Below, piece after piece: positions 1,359 to 9,150 of a stretch of DNA of 9,150 nucleotides. Location of the stretch: the IMG/VR virus record IMGVR_UViG_2698536574_000022. One strand, given 5' to 3'. Source of the stretch: a virus. Taxonomy: Duplodnaviria; Heunggongvirae; Uroviricota; Caudoviricetes. Position numbers and translations under genes: made by a program. Position 1 is the stretch's first letter. Each line of letters begins with the position of its first letter. The notes under the pieces are model-generated. The model saw only the letters and a program-made list of their open reading frames with translations. It did not search any database and was not told the origin of the DNA.

Positions 1359-1514
1359 TTACTCCTCAGGTTCGTAAGCTGTGAAGACAGCGACCTCCGT
1401 CTGGCCGGTTCGGATTCGTACCTCGCAGAGGTCTTTCCTCGTTACCAGTGCCGTCACTATGACGGTTAAACAGATGACGATCAGGGCGATTAACATCGCC
1501 TTTTGCTGCTTCAT
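1359..1514 (-). CDS. hokD: Hok/Gef family type I toxin (small membrane-depolarising peptide)
   Basis: Translation from ATG 1514-1512: MKQQKAMLIALIVICLTVIVTALVTRKDLCEVRIRTGQTEVAVFTAYEPEE (51 aa), with single TM helix and the conserved RKxLCE...E/A..AYE signature of Hok/Gef. It matches my recollection of E. coli HokD/RelF, which is not verified by search. SD AAGGAG 9 nt upstream. The track ORF (1359..1571) adds 19 in-frame N-terminal codons that I consider unlikely to be translated. Confidence 0.85.
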   Translation of the reverse strand: MKQQKAMLIALIVICLTVIVTALVTRKDLCEVRIRTGQTEVAVFTAYEPEE

Positions 1515-1725
1515 AGCCTGCTTCTCCTTGCCTTTCGGCACGTAAGAGGCTAACCTAGATTTGCCGTTCATAGATTGAGCCTCAGATTAATGTTAAGCGT
1601 CTTGCAGGACGCGTAATGTTAACTGGGGCTTTTCTCTATCTGCCTTTGGTGTTCATGCCTGAGACAGATAGCCTCAAGCACCCGCAGCCATTCTACTTAA
1701 CTCCCGTTACCTCGCCAATATGAAA

Positions 1726-1815: not shown

Positions 1816-2138
1816 CACAACCTCCTGTATTGGACGTACACCAGTCCTGATAAATATGAGGCTGTCTCGTCAGTGATTCAATACAACTATTGGGTATAGT
1901 TTCTGTGATTTTGTTCTGTAGAAATGGAACATAATAACCTGTCACCACCAGCACTTCTTTAAATACGCCAAGTCCGACGCAAGCTAACCTTCTAGCCCGC
2001 TTTGAGCGAAGAACGGACTGAGTAATTCAGGCCGTTAGCGACACTATGACATCATTAGCAACCAACTAGGAGTTGGTAATAGATGAGTTAATTAATTGAT
2101 TAAAAACCGACGATTTTACTAGATTACGGGAAGAAGAA

Positions 2139-2156
2139 AGGCCGCTGGTACGGCCT
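2139..2156 (-). terminator. Weak intrinsic terminator after the small coiled-coil gene
   Basis: Hairpin AGGCCG-CTGGTA-CGGCCT at 2139-2156; minus-strand downstream sequence is TTCTTCTTCCC (pyrimidine-rich, imperfect U-tract). Sits 26 nt past the stop of the 2182..2379 ORF. Confidence 0.4.
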
Positions 2157-2181
2157 CCCAGAGACTAGTCTATTGTTATGC

Positions 2182-2379
2182 TTAGAAACGCTTTTCTATC
2201 TCTTTTTCTCTTTCGTTTATTGCATCGTCAATGATTTTTTTTGCTGAATTAATTTGTGGTGTTTTTTCTGGTAATACATCTTCAAGATCTTTGGCAATTT
2301 TCTTTAATTTATCGATTTCTTTAGTTAAATCAGTTACAGATTTATCCGCTATTGACTTTGTCATTTTTCCATATTCCAT
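2182..2379 (-). CDS. Hypothetical small K/E-rich coiled-coil protein (65 aa)
   Basis: Track ORF MEYGKMTKSIADKSVTDLTKEIDKLKKIAKDLEDVLPEKTPQINSAKKIIDDAINEREKEIEKRF. AT-rich codon usage like the rest of the insert, followed by its own hairpin. No strong SD; alternative start at ATG 2364. Confidence 0.45.
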   Translation of the reverse strand: MEYGKMTKSIADKSVTDLTKEIDKLKKIAKDLEDVLPEKTPQINSAKKIIDDAINEREKEIEKRF

Positions 2380-2552
2380 TCAATTTATTTATCAATCAGT
2401 TACCCGTAAACCTTATCATGGATTCCAATTATCGACAGCTGGGATTTTTACTTTCTTGATCTGCCCCAGGCGAATGACATATCCCCATTAACCAATGTCC
2501 GCTCCTAGCACTTAGTAGACATTAATAGATTGTAAGCGTTCCCGTCATGTAG

Positions 2553-2933
2553 CGGTCACCGATTGGTGATGAATTGAAGCGGATCATTGATGAAAGTCGC
2601 AATAACGTGGCCAGCCCATTTATCGTTCACCAGATCCCGGAACGGCAGGTTAAACGCAGCAAAGAAGTTTCTCATCCCACTCAAGTTGCACCAGACTATT
2701 TGAGTCGGTCGTTTTCAGCTACGCGTGACAAGCTGGGTTTATATGACAAACGGCCGATGGATGAAAGGCCAACCTTTCACGAAATTCGCGCCTTAGCAGC
2801 ACATCTTTTTGATCAGCAGGGCATCGATCCACAAGGACGAATGGCACACAGCGATGCGAAATCAACTAAAATCTACACGCAAAACCATATCGACTGGGTT
2901 GTAGTTCCACATGGAGAAATTAAAGCCAGCTAG
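2553..2933 (+). pseudogene. Lambda-type tyrosine integrase, 3' fragment only (C-terminal ~125 codons)
   Basis: Track ORF 2574..2933 starts at TTG; the frame is open back to a TAG at 2550-2552. C-terminus PTFHEIRALAAHLFDQQGIDPQGRMAHSDAKSTKIYTQNHIDWVVVPHGEIKAS aligns with the lambda Int C-terminus as I recall it (PTFHELRSLSARLYEKQ...LLGHKSDTMASQY...DKIEIK), including the catalytic His and Tyr positions. All three frames upstream of 2550 hit stops within about 20 codons, so the N-terminal ~230 codons of a full integrase are absent. Confidence 0.65.
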
Positions 2934-3031
2934 CACCAAGTAAGGCATAGAATTTTATTAACCAAGGAGCATATGACCAGTAATTAATTCTTACCGGAAA
3001 GTTAGCCCTGCTAAAATTAATATTAACAAAT

Positions 3032-3063
3032 AAAAAAATAGGGGCAAATATTTATATTTGCCC
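3032..3063 (-). terminator. Rho-independent terminator of the nucleotidyltransferase-effector operon
   Basis: 9-bp stem GGGCAAATA (3042-3050) / TATTTGCCC (3055-3063), loop TTTA; on the minus strand it is followed by CTATTTTTTTATTTG (rc of 3027-3041). Located 12 nt past the effector stop codon. Confidence 0.65.
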
Positions 3064-3074
3064 TCGCAACATAT

Positions 3075-3656
3075 TTATCTTCTTTTCAGTTCCTTGGGAA
3101 GAAAAGCATCTATTTCTTCTTCAGAAAATGTTAAATCTTCTTTGTTTTTTAATGCGTCCTGTGCTTTTTTATAAGCTTCAAATGTTGTACTAGGAGAGCC
3201 TGAATACACTGAATGTAAACTCTCGAGTAACGAATCCCGCTCTGACTGCAATTGCTCGATTGGTTTTTCACCCATTGCTAAGTCTGTAAGCAATGATAAA
3301 TACTTTTCTCGGATTAACCAGATCTCATTTGCAGCCTGCTTATGTTTTTGCGCCAACTCACCAAGGTCATAATCTTTGGTATAAGCGTTAAGAATGAGAA
3401 GCAGTGTTGAAACAACAATCCCAACCCCCGTGCCTACTTCACCCGCGCCGAAAAAAGTTGCTAGAAAGCCTCCAGTAGTTAAGGCGGAGAGAATTATTTG
3501 CCAAAACTTTATAGAAGATAGTCGAGATAGGAGAATGTCTGAGCATTTTTCATGCGTCTTATGTGAGTAAACGACCCGACCATAACACTCTCTGATCTGC
3601 CCTTCTAAAACCCTTCTAGATTCAGGTGTATCCTTAGTCTGGAAATGTTGATCCAT
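3075..3656 (-). CDS. Two-transmembrane effector, SLATT-like (predicted pore-forming or membrane-disrupting partner of the nucleotidyltransferase)
   Basis: Track ORF 3075..3713; preferred start ATG 3656-3654 with GGGAGA about 4 nt upstream, giving MDQHFQTKDTPESRRVLEGQIRECYGRVVYSHKTHEKCSDILLSRLSSIKFWQIILSALTTGGFLATFFGAGEVGTGVGIVVSTLLLILNAYTKDYD... (193 aa). Layout is an N-terminal helix, two hydrophobic segments (WQIILSALTTGGFLATFF and GVGIVVSTLLLILNAY) and a roughly 95-aa helical charged C-terminal region. Overlaps the upstream gene by 23 nt (80 nt if ATG 3713 is used). Confidence 0.7.
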   Translation of the reverse strand: MDQHFQTKDTPESRRVLEGQIRECYGRVVYSHKTHEKCSDILLSRLSSIKFWQIILSALTTGGFLATFFGAGEVGTGVGIVVSTLLLILNAYTKDYDLGELAQKHKQAANEIWLIREKYLSLLTDLAMGEKPIEQLQSERDSLLESLHSVYSGSPSTTFEAYKKAQDALKNKEDLTFSEEEIDAFLPKELKRR

Positions 3657-4515
3657 AAATCTCCCGCCATTTTTGCTTAGCCGACCATTCGCGTTTTGGG
3701 GTCGCCATTTCATGCTCTATAGCTTCGAGTGAAATGTTATAGCACCGTTTTGCTTTATATTGGAAAAGCCCTTTACCATAGACATACTGACCACTTCCTG
3801 GCGCTTTCCAATACTCCTTACTCGTATCTTGATCAGCCATCCATTTGAAGAAATCACGACTCATGAAATCGTAGTAAAGATACGACTTATCTCTATGCGC
3901 CCAATTTTCAATGAATTGATACGCAAGCGTATCAATGAGTAAACCACTTATAGGTACATCCCATTTACGCTTCCAAGCTCTTGCCATTCTACAAAGTTGC
4001 ACCAAATTGTTATTGGTAATGTTATTTCTTAACCTCATTGCAGAAATTTCTGGCTTTGGATTTGTAATCCTCCAACGGCCACCACCGTTCGCATCAGGAA
4101 ATGTGTAACTATCACTAACATTGAGGAAAGCTGGAACGACTTCAAATGTAATTCCATCATTGAACGGTACAAGGATCACTTGACCGTCACCTCTAATACT
4201 AGTGGTAGCATAGGTTTTTTCAATAGATCTCTTAACCGCTTGAAGCAATGCTGACTGCCCATTTCCTAAGTAGCTATTGTATTTTTGATACTCGGAATAT
4301 GGTAGCTGAAAAATCATATCCAGATCGCTCAAGCCTTGCGTAGCTGTGTTCCGACCATATGATCCAACGTAGAGACTATGAGAAGTATCAGAACTGCTAT
4401 CCCAAAAATCCGTATTTAAACGCTTCGTTATATTCCTATATCTAGTTGAAATTGTTCCACCATCTTTTACAGTAAGATTGGAGCAAAATCCGCAAAACCA
4501 CTCAGCTAAACCCAT
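3634..4515 (-). CDS. CD-NTase / SMODS-family nucleotidyltransferase (cGAS/DncV-like; predicted cyclic nucleotide second-messenger synthase)
   Basis: Track ORF 3634..4521 starts at TTG; preferred start ATG 4515-4513 with AAGGA about 8 nt upstream. Translation MGLAEWFCGFCSNLTVKDGGTISTRYRNITKRL...YVGSYGRNTATQGLSDLDMIF...GQVILVPFNDGITFEVVPAF...RWRITNP... shows the Pol-beta-type GS-x11-DxD motif plus a downstream acidic residue in an h-h-F-D-G-hh-EVVP context. About 293 aa, typical of minimal CD-NTases. Assignment is by motif recognition, not a search. Confidence 0.8.
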   Translation of the reverse strand: MGLAEWFCGFCSNLTVKDGGTISTRYRNITKRLNTDFWDSSSDTSHSLYVGSYGRNTATQGLSDLDMIFQLPYSEYQKYNSYLGNGQSALLQAVKRSIEKTYATTSIRGDGQVILVPFNDGITFEVVPAFLNVSDSYTFPDANGGGRWRITNPKPEISAMRLRNNITNNNLVQLCRMARAWKRKWDVPISGLLIDTLAYQFIENWAHRDKSYLYYDFMSRDFFKWMADQDTSKEYWKAPGSGQYVYGKGLFQYKAKRCYNISLEAIEHEMATPKREWSAKQKWREIYGSTFPD

Positions 4516-4661
4516 GCTCAATTCCTTTTCTAAAATCTAATGAAAAATTCAAGGGCGCATGTTCCATGCATCATTGATAACTTTTTTCAGTCAGCTAGAG
4601 CAACATAATTGATACTAACTAGCTGTTTCTTCAAGTGAGTAACCTACTTTAGCATCAAGGT

Positions 4662-4690
4662 ATTATACCTACCAAGCATGGGGAGAAACC
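4662..4690 (-). promoter_or_regulatory. Candidate promoter for the NTase-effector operon
   Basis: Perfect -10 TATAAT on the minus strand (rc of 4662-4667), about 150 nt upstream of the NTase ATG; the -35 is poor (GGTTTC/TGGTTT at 17-18 nt spacing). Position and hexamer only. Confidence 0.3.
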
Positions 4691-4829
4691 ACCACTTAAG
4701 CCATTGAAGTATATAGAGCAGATTTTGTTGAAAAAGCACTGTTTGTCTATACATATGAATATGTGCTTTTAACCAGCAATAGCGCGGCTCTCAGCGTTTT
4801 ACAAGCAGTGTCATGGGGTGTCGGGGATC

Positions 4830-4857
4830 GGAAGTTCAAATCCTCTCGTGCGACCCA
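4830..4857 (+). other. tRNA 3'-end-like fragment (T-arm, acceptor 3' strand, CCA); possible integration-site (att) remnant
   Basis: GGAAG-TTCAAAT-CCTCT (4830-4846; T-loop consensus, stem with one A-C mismatch), then 7-nt CGTGCGA, discriminator C and CCA (4855-4857). No complementary 5' acceptor strand within 80 nt upstream, so this is not a complete tRNA. Confidence 0.35.
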
Positions 4858-4870
4858 AAAGATTATATAA

Positions 4871-4896
4871 ACCAGCCTGTTATTGCTGGTTTTTTA
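4871..4896 (+). terminator. Intrinsic terminator-like hairpin following the tRNA-like fragment
   Basis: ACCAGC-CTGTTATT-GCTGGT (4871-4890) followed by TTTTTTA on the + strand. An inverted copy of the stem sequence (AACCAGCAATA, 4771-4781) lies about 100 bp upstream. Confidence 0.45.
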
Positions 4897-5049
4897 TGCC
4901 TACCTTCCTGGTAGGGAAGCTATGGGGAATTACTGGGGAATCCCCCCCCTTTACCTGCTCCCATTAAACTAACATAGCACGATGTAAGCAACTTCCGCTT
5001 CTGGCACAAAGCGGACAACCACGCTAGCTCTACCCTGTGCCACAAAATG

Positions 5050-5508
5050 TCAATTTACATCTGAACTAATGCACTTTAATCTCGTCACTTCAAAAAAATA
5101 CCGAACATCCCCCTGATAAAACGACAATATCCGCTGCATAACTTCGCTTTTACGACACTCAGTACAAATTATATTATGACGCCTGTCGTAACGACGTATT
5201 TCTCCATCAGGTAATGACCAGATAAGGTCCGGATCAACCGCAGATGGTTTCTTCAGCTTTGCCCTTGAGAGCTTTTTACGGGCATTTTGCCAGTCCTTAC
5301 GCGCCTGTTCAGACGGGAATAACCCGTAACCAGAGTTGTATACATCGCCACTGGCAACCAGCTCTCTGGCCAGAACGCTCATCAGATATCTTGTTGCCCC
5401 AGTTTTAGCTTCCTGTTGTCGTAACGTCTCGCGCCCACTCTGGCGTACGAGTTCAAGAACCTGCCCTTTAATTTTTTCCCGCTCTTCTTGTGTAAAAACT
5501 TTTGCCAC
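5050..5508 (-). CDS. Hypothetical prophage protein (152 aa), distal gene of the replication-side operon
   Basis: Track ORF with GTG start at 5508-5506 preceded by consensus AGGAGG (rc of 5513-5518). Translation (M)AKVFTQEEREKIKGQVLELVRQSGRETLRQQ... No Walker motif (not a DnaC/P-type helicase loader) and no domain I can assign. Confidence 0.6.
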   Translation of the reverse strand: MAKVFTQEEREKIKGQVLELVRQSGRETLRQQEAKTGATRYLMSVLARELVASGDVYNSGYGLFPSEQARKDWQNARKKLSRAKLKKPSAVDPDLIWSLPDGEIRRYDRRHNIICTECRKSEVMQRILSFYQGDVRYFFEVTRLKCISSDVN

Positions 5509-5548
5509 AAGCCCTCCTGAAAATTACCTCATGACCAGAAATACACAC

Positions 5549-6136
5549 TTACCCCCTGAAGCCCGGTGGAATTTCGGTATCCGGTTCAGAAATATGATTC
5601 ACACAACGCTGGTTGTTCGTACCGCTTACCGGGAGCAACCAGGGGTTTTCAAAATTCCGGTCCGGTCCAAAAAACGTCGTCGCTCGCTGAACAAATTCCG
5701 TTCCCGTTTTCCCGGTAGCCGCCAGGTATCTTGCGTAACGCCTCACACCATCCAGCATGGCCTCTGGTGGCACCCCCTCGCGTAATCTGGCCTTCCAGGC
5801 ACTGAAAGCGGATTTCTTCGGGTTTGCCCCAGCACGCAACGGGTATTCCCGCCAGACCTGTTCGAACACATCCGGATAATCTACTCGCCCCACAGGCTGC
5901 CCGGTGTTTTCCGGGACTACCCGATCGGCTTCCCGCTGAATGGCGGAATCGGCTTCAGGCTGCTGCAGTTGGTGTGATTGCTCCGGCCTTGCGGTCATCA
6001 CCTGCTGCACAGCGCCCGAATCGGCTTTCAGCGCATACGCTGAATCGGCTTCCGGTGTCGTGCCTGCTGGCTGACCAGGATTGACGGTCTGAACATCCCC
6101 TGCCTGGTTCGTGGCGTTTTTTACGCCATGGACCAT
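5549..6136 (-). CDS. Replication-associated protein: low-complexity linker plus conserved C-terminal domain
   Basis: Track ORF 5549..6223 begins at TTG; first ATG is 6136-6134 (MVHGVKNATNQ...). Pro/Gln/Ala/Thr-rich linker, then DYPDVFEQVWREYPLRAGANPKKSAFSAWKARLREGVPPEAMLDGVRRYARYLAATGKTGTEFVQRATTFFGPDRNFENPWLLP, which I recognise as a phage replication-protein type of domain (memory, unverified). Its 5' end overlaps the upstream ORF in another frame, so it may be the C-terminal part of a frameshifted single initiator gene. Confidence 0.55.
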   Translation of the reverse strand: MVHGVKNATNQAGDVQTVNPGQPAGTTPEADSAYALKADSGAVQQVMTARPEQSHQLQQPEADSAIQREADRVVPENTGQPVGRVDYPDVFEQVWREYPLRAGANPKKSAFSAWKARLREGVPPEAMLDGVRRYARYLAATGKTGTEFVQRATTFFGPDRNFENPWLLPVSGTNNQRCVNHISEPDTEIPPGFRG

Positions 6137-6609
6137 AGTGTTTTGATCTTCTTGATCTGTATCTTTATCTGTATCTTTATCTGTCGTGACATGTGCGTGA
6201 CATTTCGTGACGCGCCGTGACAATCGCCATTTTGTTCCCGCTTTCTTTCCCTCTCTCGCTGCGCCCTCTTGCGCTCTGCAGGAGATTTTGCGGTTTGCGA
6301 AATATTGCCGTTGTCCTCTTTAAGCACCTGGCGTTTTTCCCATCCAGTGATTAAATCACCATCAAGTACCCGCCCCTGCATCGTCTGCAAAATTGAATCA
6401 ATTACCTCTTCTGTCACGTCGAGCGCACTTGCCAAATCTTCTGTCGTGACATCAATGTGACCTCGCGTGACATTTCGTGACGCGCTCACCAGGAGGTGGA
6501 TATACACTGCCATCACTGTTGCAATTGGCTGCCCTGACACCCTGGCAATTGTTCGCCACTTAGGGTCATTTGGCATGTCATGCCATAATCTGAGCCAAGC
6601 GTTAGCCAT
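6121..6609 (-). CDS. Replication initiator / replisome-organizer N-terminal domain protein (lambda O-like role); contains the iteron arrays
   Basis: Track ORF 6121..6615 starts at GTG; preferred ATG 6609-6607 with GAGGTG 3-4 nt upstream. N-terminus MANAWLRLWHDMPNDPKWRTIARVSGQPIATVMAVYIHLLVSAS resembles phage replisome-organizer N-terminal domains. The gene body contains two arrays of four phased GTGAC repeats, as the lambda O gene contains ori. Confidence 0.65.
   Translation of the reverse strand: MANAWLRLWHDMPNDPKWRTIARVSGQPIATVMAVYIHLLVSASRNVTRGHIDVTTEDLASALDVTEEVIDSILQTMQGRVLDGDLITGWEKRQVLKEDNGNISQTAKSPAERKRAQRERERKREQNGDCHGASRNVTHMSRQIKIQIKIQIKKIKTLWSMA
6155..6184. repeat. Tandem 12-bp repeat (ATCTGTATCTTT x 2.5) in an AT-rich stretch with two GATC sites
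   Basis: Direct reading: ATCTGTATCTTT at 6155-6166 and 6167-6178, then partial ATCTGT; GATC at 6145-6148 and 6154-6157. Encodes IKIQIKIQIK in one minus frame and TDKDTDKDTD in the overlapping frame. Confidence 0.8.
6186..6221. repeat. Iteron-like array A: four GTGAC motifs at 10-11 bp phasing
   Basis: GTGAC at 6186, 6197, 6207 and 6217, immediately adjacent to the AT-rich tandem repeat. The block CTGTCGTGACAT...GCGTGACATTTCGTGACGCGC (6181-6215) is duplicated at 6441-6485. Confidence 0.6.
6446..6481. repeat. Iteron-like array B: four GTGAC motifs at 10-11 bp phasing
   Basis: GTGAC at 6446, 6457, 6467 and 6477, plus an inverted copy (GTCAC) at 6414-6418. A near-duplicate of array A lying about 260 bp away inside the same gene. 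Confidence 0.6.
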
Positions 6610-6680
6610 ACTCACCTCTTCTGATACCGAATCTTTTTACTCACGAGTTGCCGGAAGCGATTCGATATGGCTATTGTCAG

Positions 6681-7106
6681 TCAATGTACTGCCACAGCAT
6701 TTCCTGCCGGGCCACCACGGTTCATCTGATTGAAACCGGCGATTGCCACTGCGACAAAATCATCAGCGTCTCTCACCAGTCGCTCCCGCGTCTCCACCAG
6801 CTCCCGAAAATAAGCTGAACTGTGGCTGCGCATTCTGGCCACCAGCAAAGGTGGCCTTGCCTTTTCGATCGCTGGTAACAACGCCTGAATTTTTTCAACT
6901 GCATCAGGGGTATCTTTCTCTATCCAGCGGAAAATTTTCTGGGTATTGCGAGCCAGGGCTTCCGGATGGCTGTCGTCGTACAGTTCAGGAAACGTCATAC
7001 CCAACTCAAAATAAGCCTGGGTTATTCCAGCTGCCGGAACTTTTTCGCCATCAGGACGCGCCCAGGCATTCATCGCCATGCGGATGTGTTCATGCTTGAT
7101 TTTCAT
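6681..7106 (-). CDS. YdaT/CII-like prophage regulator (141 aa)
   Basis: Track ORF 6681..7178; preferred start ATG 7106-7104 (MKIKHEHIRMAMNAWARPDGEK...) preceded by GGGGGG 5 nt upstream. It sits immediately after the Cro-like gene, in the cII position. Family name is from memory. Confidence 0.55.
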   Translation of the reverse strand: MKIKHEHIRMAMNAWARPDGEKVPAAGITQAYFELGMTFPELYDDSHPEALARNTQKIFRWIEKDTPDAVEKIQALLPAIEKARPPLLVARMRSHSSAYFRELVETRERLVRDADDFVAVAIAGFNQMNRGGPAGNAVAVH

Positions 7107-7332
7107 GAATCCCCCCTTGGTTAGAAGGCGGATTATGATCAGAACCGGGAATGACAACCGTCGGTATGTGTAACTCATATTTGAGCGCCCCGGCAGTGAC
7201 TGCCTGAATTAGCAACGCCCATTTCCACGGAACCTCTTCCCCCCACATGCTGACTGTGGTTTTTGACGTTCCTAGAGCTGCGGCTGTTTTAACAACTCCG
7301 CCAAAATAGCCTAATACTTCTGATTTTTTCAT
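7090..7332 (-). CDS. Cro-like HTH regulator (YdaS-like)
   Basis: Track ORF 7090..7380 starts at TTG; preferred ATG 7332-7330 with GGAG 7 nt upstream. MKKSEVLGYFGGVVKTAAALGTSKTTVSMWGEEVPWKWALLIQAVTAGALKY... has an HTH and is divergent from the CI-like gene across an operator-containing intergenic region. Confidence 0.7.
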   Translation of the reverse strand: MKKSEVLGYFGGVVKTAAALGTSKTTVSMWGEEVPWKWALLIQAVTAGALKYELHIPTVVIPGSDHNPPSNQGGIHENQA

Positions 7333-7360
7333 GAGTCGCTCCATAAAACTGAACGCCAAA

Positions 7361-7424
7361 AGTTTAATAATCAAAACCAAAGAAAGTCAAGAAACAAAAC
7401 CATCTGTGTTTTAAAATCAAAACA
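7361..7424. promoter_or_regulatory. oR-like divergent control region: operator palindromes and back-to-back promoters
   Basis: Palindrome TGTTTT-AAAATC-AAAACA at 7407-7424 overlapping the CI-like ATG; degenerate copy AGTTTA-ATAATC-AAAACC at 7361-7378. Minus strand: -35 TTGACT (rc of 7385-7390), 18-nt spacer, -10 TAAACT (rc of 7361-7366) aimed at the Cro-like gene. Plus strand: -10 TAAAAT at 7412-7417 ends 6 nt before the CI-like ATG with no SD, consistent with a leaderless transcript. Confidence 0.55.
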
Positions 7425-8062
7425 TGAGCAAGCAAACAATATCTGAACGCATAACCCAACGTATGCATGCGCTAAACCTGAAAGGCAAAGACCTTGTCAA
7501 TGCCACTGGCGCATCAAAAGGCTCCGTAAGTCAATGGATGAACGGTGGAGGAGCGCCGTCCTCGCGTTACATAAGTTCACTGGCAAAAATATTGAAAGTA
7601 AACGAAAATTGGCTTCTTAATGGAGGAGAGTTAAATACAGGTGATTCGCTTGATCTATCTTTACCGCCGATAAAAACGGTTCCGCTACTATCACTTCAGC
7701 AGGCAGCAAGCTGGAGTGATTATATGAAAAATTCCTCAATAACCTCTTGTGTGCAGCTTGTCGGAGAAATCCCGGCCAATACCTTTGCAGTTGTTCTAGA
7801 GAGTGACAGTATGTCAACATCTGGTGGGGGAGTTTCCATCCCAAATGGTTCAACAGTTTTTGTTGATCCCAATCGAACCGTACAACCAGGAAATATTGTC
7901 CTTGCCTTACCCAAAGGGACCACAACACCTGTCATTCGTAAACTGGAGATAGAAGGGCCGGATATTCTTTTAGTCCCCACGAATCCTCGCTACCCTTCAA
8001 TTATGCTGGATGATCTATCTTGCATATTGGGCGTATGCTTTAAAATTCAACAAGATATTTAA
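7424..8062 (+). CDS. CI-like phage repressor: N-terminal XRE-type HTH plus C-terminal S24 (LexA-like) autopeptidase domain
   Basis: Track ORF, 212 aa. HTH region LKGKDLVNATGASKGSVSQWMNGGGAPSS...NENWLLNGG; C-terminal domain with Ser in AVVLESDSMSTSGGG and Lys in VIRKLEIEG, with the conserved spacing of LexA/cI Ser-Lys dyad proteins. Confidence 0.9.
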   Translation: MSKQTISERITQRMHALNLKGKDLVNATGASKGSVSQWMNGGGAPSSRYISSLAKILKVNENWLLNGGELNTGDSLDLSLPPIKTVPLLSLQQAASWSDYMKNSSITSCVQLVGEIPANTFAVVLESDSMSTSGGGVSIPNGSTVFVDPNRTVQPGNIVLALPKGTTTPVIRKLEIEGPDILLVPTNPRYPSIMLDDLSCILGVCFKIQQDI

Positions 8063-8128
8063 CCGACCTCATCTATTTGATTAACTGTATGCCATCGTGG
8101 TGATGGCTTAACAGCTGCCTGCTTAAAA

Positions 8129-8175
8129 TGTTTTGATAAAAAAACATTGACCTGAAAAGTTCATTTTTCTAAACT
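8129..8175 (+). promoter_or_regulatory. oL/pL-like operator plus promoter for the rightward small-gene operon
   Basis: Palindrome TGTTTT-GATAAA-AAAACA at 8129-8146 (same consensus as the 7407-7424 site), abutting -35 TTGACC (8147-8152), 17-nt spacer, -10 TAAACT (8170-8175). The same -10 hexamer is used by the pR-like promoter. Confidence 0.5.
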
Positions 8176-8354
8176 TCATTCATTCCCTCTCCCCACCCCA
8201 CAGAATGCAGGGCAATACTTCGAGTTACCAGGCAGTGGTCAGGGGTTAAGTAGCCAGCCCGAGGCGTAAGAACATGACGGCAGGGTTCAACTTTAATAAC
8301 TATGCAGCAGGTTTTTGTTCCGCTACCCCGGCGTTAAGGGGAAATGAGGTCAGC

Positions 8355-8507
8355 ATGGATACTATCGATCTTGGCAACAGCGAATCTCTGGTATGTGGCG
8401 TGTTCCCCAACCAGGACGGTACGTTCACCGCGATGACGTATACCAAAAGCAAAACGTTTAAAACTGAAGCTGGCGCGCGTCGCTGGTTAACCAGAAACAC
8501 TGACTGA
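8355..8507 (+). CDS. Small prophage protein, YdfA-like (50 aa)
   Basis: Track ORF 8274..8507; preferred start ATG 8355 with GAGGT 4 nt upstream. MDTIDLGNSESLVCGVFPNQDGTFTAMTYTKSKTFKTEAGARRWLTRNTD; resemblance to the small Qin-prophage YdfA family is from memory. Confidence 0.55.
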   Translation: MDTIDLGNSESLVCGVFPNQDGTFTAMTYTKSKTFKTEAGARRWLTRNTD

Positions 8508-8518
8508 TGAGGTTGACG

Positions 8519-8893
8519 ATGGAATTTAAAGATTTACCAGTACCATTCCAGGAAATGGCATCGAATGTGGTTCGCTCTCAACTGGCGACTCTTGACCTGA
8601 GTACCGTAGAAAAAGAAACCATCGATACTATATCCGGTAACGTGCGTCGTGCCTTTATCGGTCTGTACGAAGAGAAGCAGCTCTCTGATAACCAGGATTT
8701 ACATGAAAAATACTTCATGGAATTAATGGACATCATTAATAAAGGATTTGGCTTGTTAATGAAAAAGAAAGGGATTCGAATAGCTCCCCTTGAAAATCAT
8801 TTTACAGCGAGCAGTATTAATTCCTGTGATTTAAAGCATCACACATCCGATGGGAAAGTTGAATCAAACAACAAAATATCAATTAATCATTAA
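8519..8893 (+). CDS. Hypothetical prophage early protein (124 aa)
   Basis: Track ORF 8507..8893; ATG 8519 has a better SD (GAGGT, 4-nt spacer) than ATG 8507, which overlaps the upstream stop. MEFKDLPVPFQEMASNVVRSQLATLDLSTVEKETIDTISGNVRRAFIGLYEEKQLSD...; no domain recognised. Confidence 0.5.
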   Translation: MEFKDLPVPFQEMASNVVRSQLATLDLSTVEKETIDTISGNVRRAFIGLYEEKQLSDNQDLHEKYFMELMDIINKGFGLLMKKKGIRIAPLENHFTASSINSCDLKHHTSDGKVESNNKISINH

Positions 8894-9150
8894 TTTATTC
8901 ACAGGTGAGGTAGAGTGCGTGCGCCGGACACGGATAAGAATCCGGCACTGACAGTTTACTGAAAAGGATATATCCCTGAAAAGTCAGGGCATAACACGAA
9001 AGCGCCCGGCGAAGTTAGTCTCTCTGTATAGGTCGTCGTTAAATTTAATTCGATCGTGCGCTTCCGGTTGTGGCAATCCGCGAAATGGCGCGGCGGTAAG
9101 TATGGCGGGGTTATTCCTTCCCCGTTGAGGACACCGGGTTGTCAGGTTGA

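Follow-up and report, generated by a model that had tools for sequence, protein, structure and literature searches.

The moron concept goes back to Hendrix and Juhala, and lambda has its nin region between P/ren and Q. In P2-like phages and P4-like satellites, differing defence and toxin cargos occupy fixed positions between near-identical flanks, as set out in the part of Rousset et al. 2022 used here (PMC9122126). Protection of at least 10^4-fold is reported for type I CBASS operons of E. coli whose effectors belong to the SLATT family, and the type is exemplified by E. coli CdnF04/F05-SLATT6 (bioRxiv 10.1101/2023.05.21.541620). Here we compare these systems with a locus in a 9,150-nucleotide viral stretch (the window, taken at its full length). 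Judged from sequence comparison, window positions 2019-4940 are a cargo cassette in a variable slot of a Qin/Rac-like lambdoid prophage of E. coli.

The variable slot and its AT-rich filling

The slot has the replication module (replisome organizer, DUF977) on one side and hokD on the other and is found upstream of DUF968-RusA-Q, which is the nin-type location proposed in a preliminary description of the window. Its landmarks and edges are the following.

1359-1514, minus strand: hokD toxin gene, left-flank landmark in the backbone, outside the insert (Pfam HOK_GEF, E 3e-23; RefSeq annotation of DEC9B)
1509-1683, minus strand: sok antisense/leader RNA region of the left flank, backbone (Rfam sok RF01794, 110 bits against a gathering score of 59)
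1996-2018, unstranded: left-boundary palindrome belonging to the Qin-type backbone; the window has a degenerate form, CCCGCTTT-GAGCGA-AGAACGGAC (alignments)
2019-4940, unstranded: insert proper, the AT-rich cargo block at about 39.9% GC (delimited where homology to UTI89, M3 and A20 ends)
4941-5015, unstranded: right-boundary element from the Qin-type backbone, with homologues in M3 and UTI89
4994-5015, unstranded: right palindrome TCCGCTT-CTGGCAC-AAGCGGA, 35 nt downstream of the DUF977 stop codon
5050-5508, minus strand: DUF977 gene, right-flank landmark in the backbone, ydfW/ydaW-type, end of the replication module (Pfam DUF977, E 2e-28, and annotation)

In the alignments, homology with UTI89 stops at 2009/2010 and restarts at 4952/4953, and with strain M3 it stops at 2018 and restarts at 4953; visual alignment puts the right edge at about 4941. 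By these breaks, the limits first proposed (1950-4900) were correct to within about 50 bp. The perfect version of the left palindrome in M3 folds at -9.6 kcal/mol (z -4.8), and the window version gives no hairpin fold. The loop of this palindrome, TGAGCGA (2003-2009), forms a 7-bp microhomology at the junctions both with UTI89 and with the tail-end context described below. In A20 and K-12 Qin the right element is reduced to its palindrome part (about 4989 onwards); the right palindrome gave one exact match against none expected from shuffles.

GC content is 39.9% at 2010-4942 (40.0% at 1950-4900), against 52.6% in the left flank (1-2009) and 47.8% in the right flank (4943-9150), so that GC is not uniform across the window and the AT-richness first reported for this stretch is borne out. 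The 2010-4942 segment is also the GC minimum of the 33-kb prophage locus (L001), where just 0.8% of 2,933-bp windows are equally AT-rich. GC3 is 0.35 in the SMODS gene, 0.34 in the SLATT gene and 0.20 in the small gene described below, and 0.41-0.67 in the flank genes. The contrast in composition is uneven: the integrase relic has 47.7% GC, and AT-rich patches occur in the right flank too (cI-like gene, 43.7%).

Across relatives the flanks are 93-98% identical and the contents of the slot differ. UTI89 carries two genes of unknown function and K-12 Qin carries relE-relB-ydfV-flxA; QueH fills the slot in other relatives, M3 has a 912-bp filling without genes, A20 about 270 bp, and E. coli B a deletion. 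No proL-like target was seen in slots with other cargo. Among 5,426 complete E. coli genomes, thousands have sequences similar to the DUF977/hokD flanks, and the block as a unit, at 99.5% identity or more, is present in 46, about 11 times in Qin-type prophages and about 35 times at a tail-fibre end. The backbones that carry it differ in their immunity and Q modules. These comparisons support the reading of the block as horizontally exchanged defence cargo and agree with the earlier view of an inserted cargo, the relatives holding different cargo between near-identical flanks.

The CBASS operon and a small neighbouring gene

The part of the insert that works is, by homology, a self-contained type I CBASS operon: two overlapping genes that come with a terminator and a candidate promoter.

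3634-4515, minus strand: CBASS cyclase, SMODS-family CD-NTase of 293 aa, WP_000521772.1 (Pfam SMODS, E 2e-50)
3075-3656, minus strand: CBASS effector, SLATT_4 two-transmembrane protein of 193 aa, WP_000371964.1 (Pfam SLATT_4, E 6e-74)
3042-3063, minus strand: intrinsic terminator-like hairpin and T-run directly after the SLATT gene, at the operon end (terminator scan: 9-bp stem, then CTATTTTTTT)
4662-4667, minus strand: candidate -10, a perfect TATAAT without a good -35, 147 nt upstream of the SMODS start codon (sequence inspection)

The SMODS protein is matched over its full length by the PADLOC model Cyclase PDLC00786 (E 4.7e-144), and its catalytic residues G51-S52, D64, D66 and D120 are at least 97% conserved among 78 homologues. 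Its GS..DxD motif aligns to the solved CD-NTase 6P8U, the nearest solved CD-NTase being distant (E 7e-9), and it scores 117 bits with NCBIfam CBASS_cyclase_b, under the 200-bit cutoff. The SLATT protein is matched by PADLOC Effector/2TM PDLC00696 (E 1.4e-84) and by NCBIfam SLATT_4 (150.7 bits against a cutoff of 55), and its hydrophobic segment spans residues 70-92. The two genes share a 23-nt overlap, and a SLATT partner was found in 74 of 80 related SMODS loci. Values of dN/dS are 0.07-0.10 for SMODS and, in comparison with Pectobacterium, about 0.05 for SLATT. A consensus promoter scan, which requires both hexamers, made no call for the TATAAT at 4662-4667.

What is said here of activity against phages, of the nucleotide product and of the action on the membrane is read from family membership. 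Upon phage infection, the SMODS CD-NTase would make a cyclic nucleotide signal, which would activate the SLATT_4 2TM effector; damage to the inner membrane would then abort the infection and the lysogen population would be protected. The operon's accession had no mention in the literature searched.

The left part of the block carries a further gene.

2182-2364, minus strand: small 60-aa coiled-coil gene, WP_000167380.1 (annotation; predicted, function not assigned by profiles)
2137-2159, minus strand: probable terminator just downstream of the small gene, hairpin GGCCG-n6-CGGCC and T-rich run (sequence inspection)

The 60-aa protein had no significant match in Pfam, PADLOC or NCBIfam, and tblastn against 80 SMODS loci from other taxa gave no match; the exact protein had SMODS-SLATT alongside in all 10 of the 10 places sampled. 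A consensus terminator scan made no call for the hairpin at 2137-2159. The DNA at 2019-2557 occurs in E. coli solely together with the block and its source is not traceable. The left 0.5 kb with the small gene could be an earlier resident of the slot, or could have arrived with the donor.

Integrase and attP relics and the route of arrival

All the contents first listed for the insert are present: the NTase-effector operon, the small coiled-coil gene, an integrase 3' fragment and a tRNA 3'-end-like sequence. The last two belong to these features.

2534-2933, plus strand: lambdoid integrase relic, last 125 codons, residues 269-393 of 393 (Pfam Phage_integrase, E 3.3e-4, C-terminal part only; DNA homology from 2558)
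4673-4809, plus strand: attP P arm, about 90% identical to the phage side of att in E. coli proL prophages, with one GGGGAG motif at 4680
4810-4857, plus strand: attP core of 48 nt, copied from the 3' half of tRNA-Pro proL, anticodon stem to CCA end (alignment with K-12 proL: two substitutions and one 1-nt shift)
4858-4940, plus strand: attP P' arm, matching the attP of Eeyore and of the Klebsiella 44-kb circle
4869-4895, plus strand: phage-type terminator in the P' arm, AAACCAGC-n8-GCTGG-T6

The integrase relic lacks the 5' 68% of the gene, and RefSeq annotates it as 'recombinase, frameshifted, missing N-terminus'. It belongs to a family of lambdoid phage integrases with an Arm-binding domain, whose intact relatives lie at prophage ends adjoining proL, and it shares 86% of nucleotides and 93.6% of amino acids with the intact integrases that proL-site prophages of E. 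coli carry. An intact order is found in a prophage of Enterobacter sp. RIT637, where chromosome and proL 3' half are followed by SMODS, SLATT, a full 392-aa integrase, an exonuclease and a cI-like repressor. Nucleotide identity to this prophage is uniform (int 80.3%, SLATT 79.6%, SMODS 81.6%). The interval between int and att varies, being empty in phage Eeyore and in the Klebsiella phage and holding, in the proL prophages of E. coli, an unknown gene of 283 or 289 aa. A near-identical intact donor, with a full integrase beside the same CBASS, was not found in viral or metagenome collections; the best intact analogue is just about 80% identical, so that the donor phage is one that we infer.

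The other aligned att copies have an exact proL core. ARAGORN and Rfam called no tRNA at 4810-4857, as is expected because this is half a gene. Along P arm, core and P' arm, the relic aligns with the attP of two free phages, Escherichia phage Eeyore and the 44-kb circular Klebsiella phage, and its P' arm had no match to a bacterial attR flank in E. coli or Enterobacter. GGGAAG/GGGGAA repeats at about 4917, 4924 and 4935 may be arm-type Int sites. On these alignments, 4673-4940 is a complete, unrecombined attP, preserved as a fossil. The preliminary description had decayed recombination features bounding the insert. The integrase fragment and the tRNA-like sequence are indeed real relics, but they do not bound the insert: attP abuts the right edge, and about 520 bp separate the int stub from the left edge.

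The most probable account, which we hold with good though incomplete confidence, is that the cassette was copied from the int-cargo-attP region of a proL-integrating lambdoid phage, joined illegitimately into the Qin-type slot, and later spread and was copied to the tail-fibre end. In this account, comparison shows positions 2534-4940 to be the copy itself, comprising the last third of int, the CBASS operon in the int-attP slot and the whole attP; by their alignments, int stub and attP are passengers copied along with the cargo. Illegitimate recombination joined this segment to the Qin-type backbone, through the 7-bp microhomology within the backbone palindrome at the left and at the P' arm end on the right. 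Recombination in the conserved flanks would then have spread it among mosaic Qin-like prophages. Lambda-like prophages later received a copy of the block at their tail-fibre end, and this copy kept Qin backbone at its two ends, 16 bp and 72 bp. The tail-end copies span the equivalent of window 2003-5012, have the same internal structure and lie in a site unrelated to the Qin slot. They carry 4941-5012 (72 bp) and 2003-2018 (16 bp), which are homologous to Qin-type backbones without the block. This backbone sequence also adjoins DUF977 in M3 and UTI89, and A20 keeps its palindrome part. The tail-end junctions cut the backbone palindromes in their loops, and no fold is found there.

In principle the second move could have run the other way: a lambda-like phage would have kept its former attP-cargo-int module as a fossil at its tail-fibre end, where the block arose, and the Qin-type slot would have received a copy later. 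Loci L012, L013, L016 and L017 have the order tfa - attP - SMODS - SLATT - int relic, which is that of free phages (tail fibre, attP, int), and the tail-end context accounts for about 35 of the 46 carriers. We nevertheless regard this direction as unlikely, given the 72 bp and 16 bp of Qin-type backbone inside the tail-end copies and the palindromes cut in their loops. In addition, the pP_pnuc-side flank is found exclusively with the block and strain names suggest that many carriers are clonal, whereas the Qin-slot carriers are diverse in strain names, sources and prophage backbones.

The remaining alternatives concern the nature of the insert. In the preliminary description, a small integrative element entered the slot site-specifically with its own integrase, brought the defence genes, and its integrase and att then decayed. 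An integrase fragment and a tRNA-derived att sequence within an AT-rich block would fit this model, and it is a common arrival route for defence islands. Integration would, however, have divided attP, leaving attL at one end of the insert and attR at the other, and the attP is whole, which contradicts the model. No direct repeat above chance flanks the insert, a second att copy is absent as well, and the left junction is the TGAGCGA microhomology; the insert is therefore not self-integrated. In slots with other cargo a proL-like target was not seen, the integrase is of a lambdoid phage type located at prophage ends, and an identical block structure occurs at a second, unrelated site. Taken together, this part of the earlier proposal is not supported, and we consider it very improbable. 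Just as improbable is capture of an attR junction with some bacterial DNA by aberrant excision, as in a specialised transducing phage. The terminator after the proL half does resemble chromosomal proL terminators, Enterobacter's more than E. coli's, but the terminator and the next 45 nt, with the GGGGAA repeats, match a free-phage P' arm and no bacterial flank. We give almost no weight to the idea of an original, stable module of the prophage lineage whose AT-richness merely reflects gene content. Other prophage parts are fairly AT-rich, the cI-like gene among them, yet only about 11 Qin-type carriers stand against thousands of genomes with similar flanks, foreign int and attP relics lie inside the block, and at least five other fillings between the same flanks contradict it.

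Comparison with known systems

The operon resembles type I CBASS such as CdnF04/F05-SLATT6 (bioRxiv 10.1101/2023.05.21.541620) in its SMODS CD-NTase with intact GS/DxD/D and its SLATT-family 2TM effector. It has no accessories (Cap2/Cap3, HORMA/TRIP13), as in type I systems, and PADLOC models match over full length. It differs in that the effector is SLATT_4 and not SLATT6, and the operon here is known from sequence. The fixed position, near-identical flanks and differing cargos recall the P2 and P4 hotspots, and the donor slot, which in proL-integrating lambdoid phages separates int from attP, borders the integrase as does the P4 psu-int hotspot in the part of PMC9122126 used here. In contrast to those hotspots, the phages here are lambdoid, two slots are involved (int-attP and replication-hokD), and the cargo dragged pieces of an integration module between slots, a feature not found in that part of the study.

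The relBE-hokD locus of K-12 Qin occupies the same slot, with relE-relB-ydfV-flxA between hokD and the DUF977 remnant ydfW, and it keeps the right palindrome. It holds a type II toxin-antitoxin and small genes where the window holds CBASS, and its flanks are far more decayed. Like the lambda morons and the nin region, the cassette is an autonomous unit, with promoter, genes and terminator, between the replication and RusA/Q genes and has a composition unlike that of its neighbours, although the promoter here is a candidate. To our knowledge, non-functional recombination relics fall outside the classical moron definition, and this cassette has them. The locus is a clear example, though an ordinary one, of the shuffling of defence genes between phages, and the kind of system is one already known.

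Composition and setting of the insert

A prophage of E. coli DEC9B matches the window along its whole length at 99.8% identity, several further strains carry matches at 99.7-99.8%, and the DEC9B annotation of the neighbourhood describes a Qin/Rac-like lambdoid prophage. Leftward from the immunity region, the minus strand encodes cro, ydaT, a replisome organizer, DUF977, the AT-rich block and hokD, the latter accompanied by its sok RNA (110 bits in Rfam) and followed by a small gene, DUF968, RusA and the Q antiterminator. The position between the replication module and the RusA/Q genes is that of the nin region of lambda, and the block therefore occupies a nin-region position.

The preliminary description had noted by eye an AT-rich insert at 1950-4900, and the calculation bears this out. 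Window 2010-4942 has a GC content of 39.9%, compared with 52.6% in the left flank and 47.8% in the right, and across the 33-kb prophage locus only 0.8% of windows of the same length are equally AT-rich, with the sliding-window minimum located at the block. Codon usage follows the same trend, with GC3 values of 0.20-0.35 in the three intact genes of the block versus 0.41-0.67 in flank genes. The proposed limits were correct to about 50 bp when compared with the homology breaks in strains UTI89 and M3, and the four expected components (an NTase-effector operon, a small coiled-coil gene, an integrase 3′ fragment and a tRNA-like sequence) were all found.

Features of the block
2019-2533: DNA with a 60-aa coiled-coil gene
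2534-2933: integrase relic (homology from 2558)
3075-3656, minus strand: SLATT_4 effector (Pfam E 6e-74; PADLOC '2TM effector' E 1.4e-84)
3634-4515, minus strand: SMODS CD-NTase (Pfam E 2e-50; PADLOC Cyclase E 4.7e-144, full length)
4673-4809: P arm, about 90% identical to the phage arm at the att site of E. coli proL prophages
4810-4857: att core, 3′ half of proL with 2 substitutions and a 1-nt shift
4858-4940: P′ arm

The DNA at 2019-2533 occurs only together with the block. Its 60-aa gene has no informative family match in Pfam, PADLOC or NCBIfam and no independent occurrence, and it is not linked to SMODS-SLATT in other taxa.

Relative to DEC9B, the window lacks 10 nt at 6183, within a run of reiterated CGTGAC motifs. 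The replisome-organizer gene (5549-6615), which encodes 356 aa in DEC9B, is thereby split into ORFs of 164 and 224 aa. With this gene disrupted, the copy of the prophage represented by the window is probably replication-defective. The window also contains an intact 212-aa ORF (7424-8062) with HTH and S24 peptidase domains, a cI/LexA-like repressor; the DEC9B RefSeq entry has at this position only a 112-aa 'LexA family protein'. Insertion sequences (IS421, IS1203, IS3, ISKpn26 and IS1) are found in several copies of the prophage region (H2 and H3; L108 and L109; L121). Two of the IS events truncate the block, one in the SLATT gene and one in the integrase relic and all beyond it. The partial copies H77 and H78, considered as clues to the origin of the block, were IS-mediated truncations and uninformative.

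A compact cyclase-effector operon

The cyclase and SLATT_4 genes are encoded on one strand and share 23 nt. A perfect TATAAT is found 147 nt ahead of the SMODS start, and a strong terminator-like hairpin closes the gene pair. The pairing of cyclase and SLATT_4 is retained in 74 of 80 related loci, across phyla. The CD-NTase carries the catalytic GS...[DE]x[DE]...[DE] motif; across 78 homologues, conservation of its residues (G51-S52, D64, D66 and D120) reaches 97% or more, and the motif aligns to PDB 6P8U. The nearest solved CD-NTases, 6P8U/6P82, are distant (E 7e-9), and the protein scores 117 bits against the NCBIfam CBASS_cyclase_b equivalog, under its 200-bit cutoff; for the SLATT_4 effector, no solved relative was found. 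Apart from these two genes, 2019-4940 contains no ORFs but the 60-aa gene and the integrase relic. Since Cap2/Cap3 (type II) and HORMA/TRIP13 (type III) genes are absent from the block, where PADLOC also returned no accessory match, the system is a type I CBASS by gene content.

By analogy with other members of these families, infection would induce the CD-NTase to synthesize a cyclic nucleotide, which would activate the effector, leading to membrane damage and abortive infection. Type I operons of E. coli whose effectors are of the SLATT6 type confer at least 10^4-fold protection (bioRxiv 10.1101/2023.05.21.541620). Our literature search returned no mention of the CD-NTase/SLATT_4 operon of the window itself. 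Comparison with the Pectobacterium and Enterobacter copies yields dN/dS values of 0.05-0.10.

Conservation of the CD-NTase is unusually high for a defence gene. Relatives (80 loci, L018-L097) share 59-86% aa identity over the full length and come from Pectobacterium, Enterobacter, Chloroflexota, Planctomycetota, Poribacteria, Nitrospirota, Cyanobacteria and others, with SLATT_4 nearly always alongside. Such conservation suggests either an unusually strong constraint or a horizontal spread that was both very wide and recent. At 1.5 kb the pair is compact, and with its striking conservation from phylum to phylum it would be an easy candidate for phage challenge.

The integrase relic and the fossil attP

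What is left of the integrase gene covers residues 269-393, at 93.6% aa identity, of a lambdoid integrase that is 393 aa long and has an Arm-binding domain. Intact relatives, at 86% DNA identity, are located at the ends of E. coli prophages inserted beside yejO, which in K-12 is the position of the tRNA-Pro gene proL; the K-12 match to the proL sequence is this chromosomal gene. ARAGORN and Rfam (E up to 1) detected no tRNA in the window, and the proL identity comes from the K-12 alignment. Prophage att junctions in E. coli and Enterobacter align with the att relic as well. Together, the integrase homology and the attP with its P and P′ arms trace the relics to the integration module of a lambdoid phage that integrates at proL. 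With 68% of int missing, this module is non-functional here.

Two readings of the att relic were compared. The attR junctions of E. coli and Enterobacter run on into bacterial sequence past proL, and under an attR or aberrant-excision reading the terminator beyond the core would be captured bacterial DNA. This is ruled out by phage Eeyore and a 44-kb circular Klebsiella phage, both with attP sites, whose match to the window runs on past the terminator and across the three reiterated GGGGAA-type motifs of the P′ arm, as far as about 4940. Because these free-phage sites match through both the terminator and the repeats, the relic is, on the alignments, a whole, unrecombined attP.

An intact analogue of this arrangement was found in Enterobacter sp. 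RIT637, where the prophage end reads from the chromosome (mqo, MFS transporter) into an exact proL 3′ half, the phage arm, SMODS and SLATT, and then a full 392-aa integrase and an exonuclease, onward to a cI-like repressor. Nucleotide identity to the window is 80.3% for int, 79.6% for SLATT and 81.6% for SMODS, a uniform divergence as expected from descent as one unit. The interval between int and att is empty in Eeyore and the Klebsiella phage. Two E. coli proL prophages hold there unrelated genes with no Pfam match, one of 289 aa (L005 6585-7454) and one of 283 aa (L006 5092-5943). As these genes are placed like the CBASS in the Enterobacter prophage, the interval constitutes a second variable cargo slot, belonging to the proL-phage family. 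Searches for a near-identical intact donor, by a viral-contig scan with the attP terminator and a metagenome scan with the int-SLATT spacer, recovered only the two known contexts of the block (the hokD slot and the tail-fibre end of lambda-like prophages); the best intact analogue in the genome-contig scan was that of Enterobacter, at about 80% identity.

Prophages integrating at proL with att arms about 90% identical to those of the relic are common in E. coli. It is conceivable, if very improbable, that the fossil attP is not inert and that a co-resident phage of this family could supply Int in trans, which would recombine the orphan attP with chromosomal proL or with the phage's own att sites. 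If true, the CBASS cassette or whole prophage segments would move between replicons by site-specific recombination, and an int-attP cargo slot with its att site would serve as a portable docking site by which defence genes pass from one lambdoid phage to another.

A variable slot beside hokD and the proposed routes into and out of it

Homology to UTI89, whose flanks are 93-97% identical to those of the window, ends at 2009/2010 and restarts at 4952/4953; homology to M3 ends at 2018 and restarts at about 4941-4953. According to the preliminary description, an insertion would be doubtful if all related prophages carried the same genes in this place with an intact integrase; instead, the same flanks hold at least six different states with several unrelated fillings, as in a prophage cargo hotspot.

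Fillings of the slot between the replication module and hokD
Block of the window: CBASS
UTI89, APEC O1 and many other strains: two-gene pair
K-12 Qin (L100 4120-6324): relE-relB-ydfV-flxA
Further filling: QueH gene
Further filling: one or two small hypothetical genes
M3: 912 bp, no annotated gene
A20: about 270 bp, gene-less, the smallest found

A clean empty slot was not found among the relatives; in E. coli B, a deletion reaching into DUF977 brings 1838 next to 5212. The commonest alternative cargo among the relatives listed is the UTI89 pair (L004 7299-9278), which encodes 320 and 333 aa and may be an uncharacterised toxin or defence pair. It has no match in PADLOC or NCBIfam and only sub-threshold Pfam matches, to a HEPN/RES N-terminal domain (E 2e-4) and to GNAT (E 9e-4).

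Among 5,426 complete genomes, 46 contain the block, with an identity of at least 99.5%. About 11 of these carriers hold it in the hokD slot; their strain names and sources are diverse, and their backbones differ in the immunity and Q modules, the pattern expected from recombination in conserved flanks. In around 35, the same block (window 2003-5012, 99.45% identity) stands behind the tail-fibre genes of a lambda-like prophage; to judge from their names, many of these strains may be clonally related. The tail-end prophages lie at two chromosomal sites, beside ibs/yegI-like genes and beside ybhB-bioA, the latter being the lambda attB region as judged from Pfam content.

While cargo and position in the preliminary description stand, its delivery vehicle, an integrative element that inserted here and later lost its integrase, does not. 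The integrase and att remains invite such a reading. However, the attP is whole and at one end only, with no att halves at the two ends, and the integrase stub is set in from the left edge of the block by about 520 bp. A search for flanking direct repeats, proposed as a check of the boundaries, gave none above chance, and no proL-like target exists in the slots of M3, UTI89, A20, K-12 Qin or E. coli B. Integration through the fossil attP would have split it, and it is unsplit. With both comparators, the left junction falls on 7 bp of microhomology (TGAGCGA) within the loop of a backbone palindrome, and on the right the block joins the backbone where the P′ arm ends. Our best reading of these junctions is entry by illegitimate recombination between the genome of a proL-integrating phage and a Qin-type phage, in which the cargo would have departed the int-attP slot of the former carrying a dead piece of int and the whole attP.

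A probable later step is seen at the tail end. The copies there carry 16 bp (2003-2018) and 72 bp (4941-5012) homologous to block-free Qin-type backbones, and their ends cut both backbone palindromes in the loops, so that these no longer fold. Because the tail-end copies retain Qin backbone ends with cut palindromes, we conclude from the sequences that the Qin slot was the source of the block and the tail end its destination. The opposite course, from the tail end into the Qin slot, appears unlikely given these same backbone ends. A search for an empty tail-end site gave none, nor any record joining the two flanks.

An apparent second integrase 3′ fragment abuts the block in the tail-end flank (L012 12513-13676, and likewise L013, L016 and L017), with a frame ending ...STVRYLGIEFDYALE; some genomes annotate it as 'integrase'. 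It is followed by a 280-aa gene with a pPIWI-associating-nuclease domain (pP_pnuc; PF18165/PF18166), and in E. coli this flank is never found without the block.

Similar palindromes, GTCCGCTT-loop-AAGCGGAC, mark the slot boundaries in some backbones (window 1996-2018 and 4994-5015; L098 2917-2938; UTI89, L004 ~7195-7220), with one perfect form per prophage locus; the UTI89 and tail-end junctions lie in their loops. Terminators and recombination sites were both rejected as explanations, the fold being good only in some backbones and lacking a T-run. A 50-bp imperfect direct repeat of the boundary elements (MAFFT) was likewise discarded, being not significant in the window, A20 or UTI89; the M3 palindrome pair alone stood out (p ~0.004). 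The palindromes may represent RNA structure, a breakage hot spot or coincidence.

These remains offer an unusually readable record of a defence operon moving between phage hotspots. They also indicate that integrase and att debris beside defence genes need not mark the delivery vehicle, a caution for automated 'integrative element' calls. The position between the replication module and hokD is newly documented as a defence-cargo slot of lambdoid Qin/Rac-type prophages. The system itself, a type I CBASS that a prophage carries in a cargo hotspot, belongs to known kinds on both counts, and current concepts are unchanged by our findings. In K-12 Qin, the same hokD-to-DUF977 slot holds relBE, a classical toxin-antitoxin locus, with ydfV and flxA, and its right-hand palindrome is still recognisable (L100 5969-5997); this textbook locus is thereby tied to the hotspot picture of P2/P4 elements.
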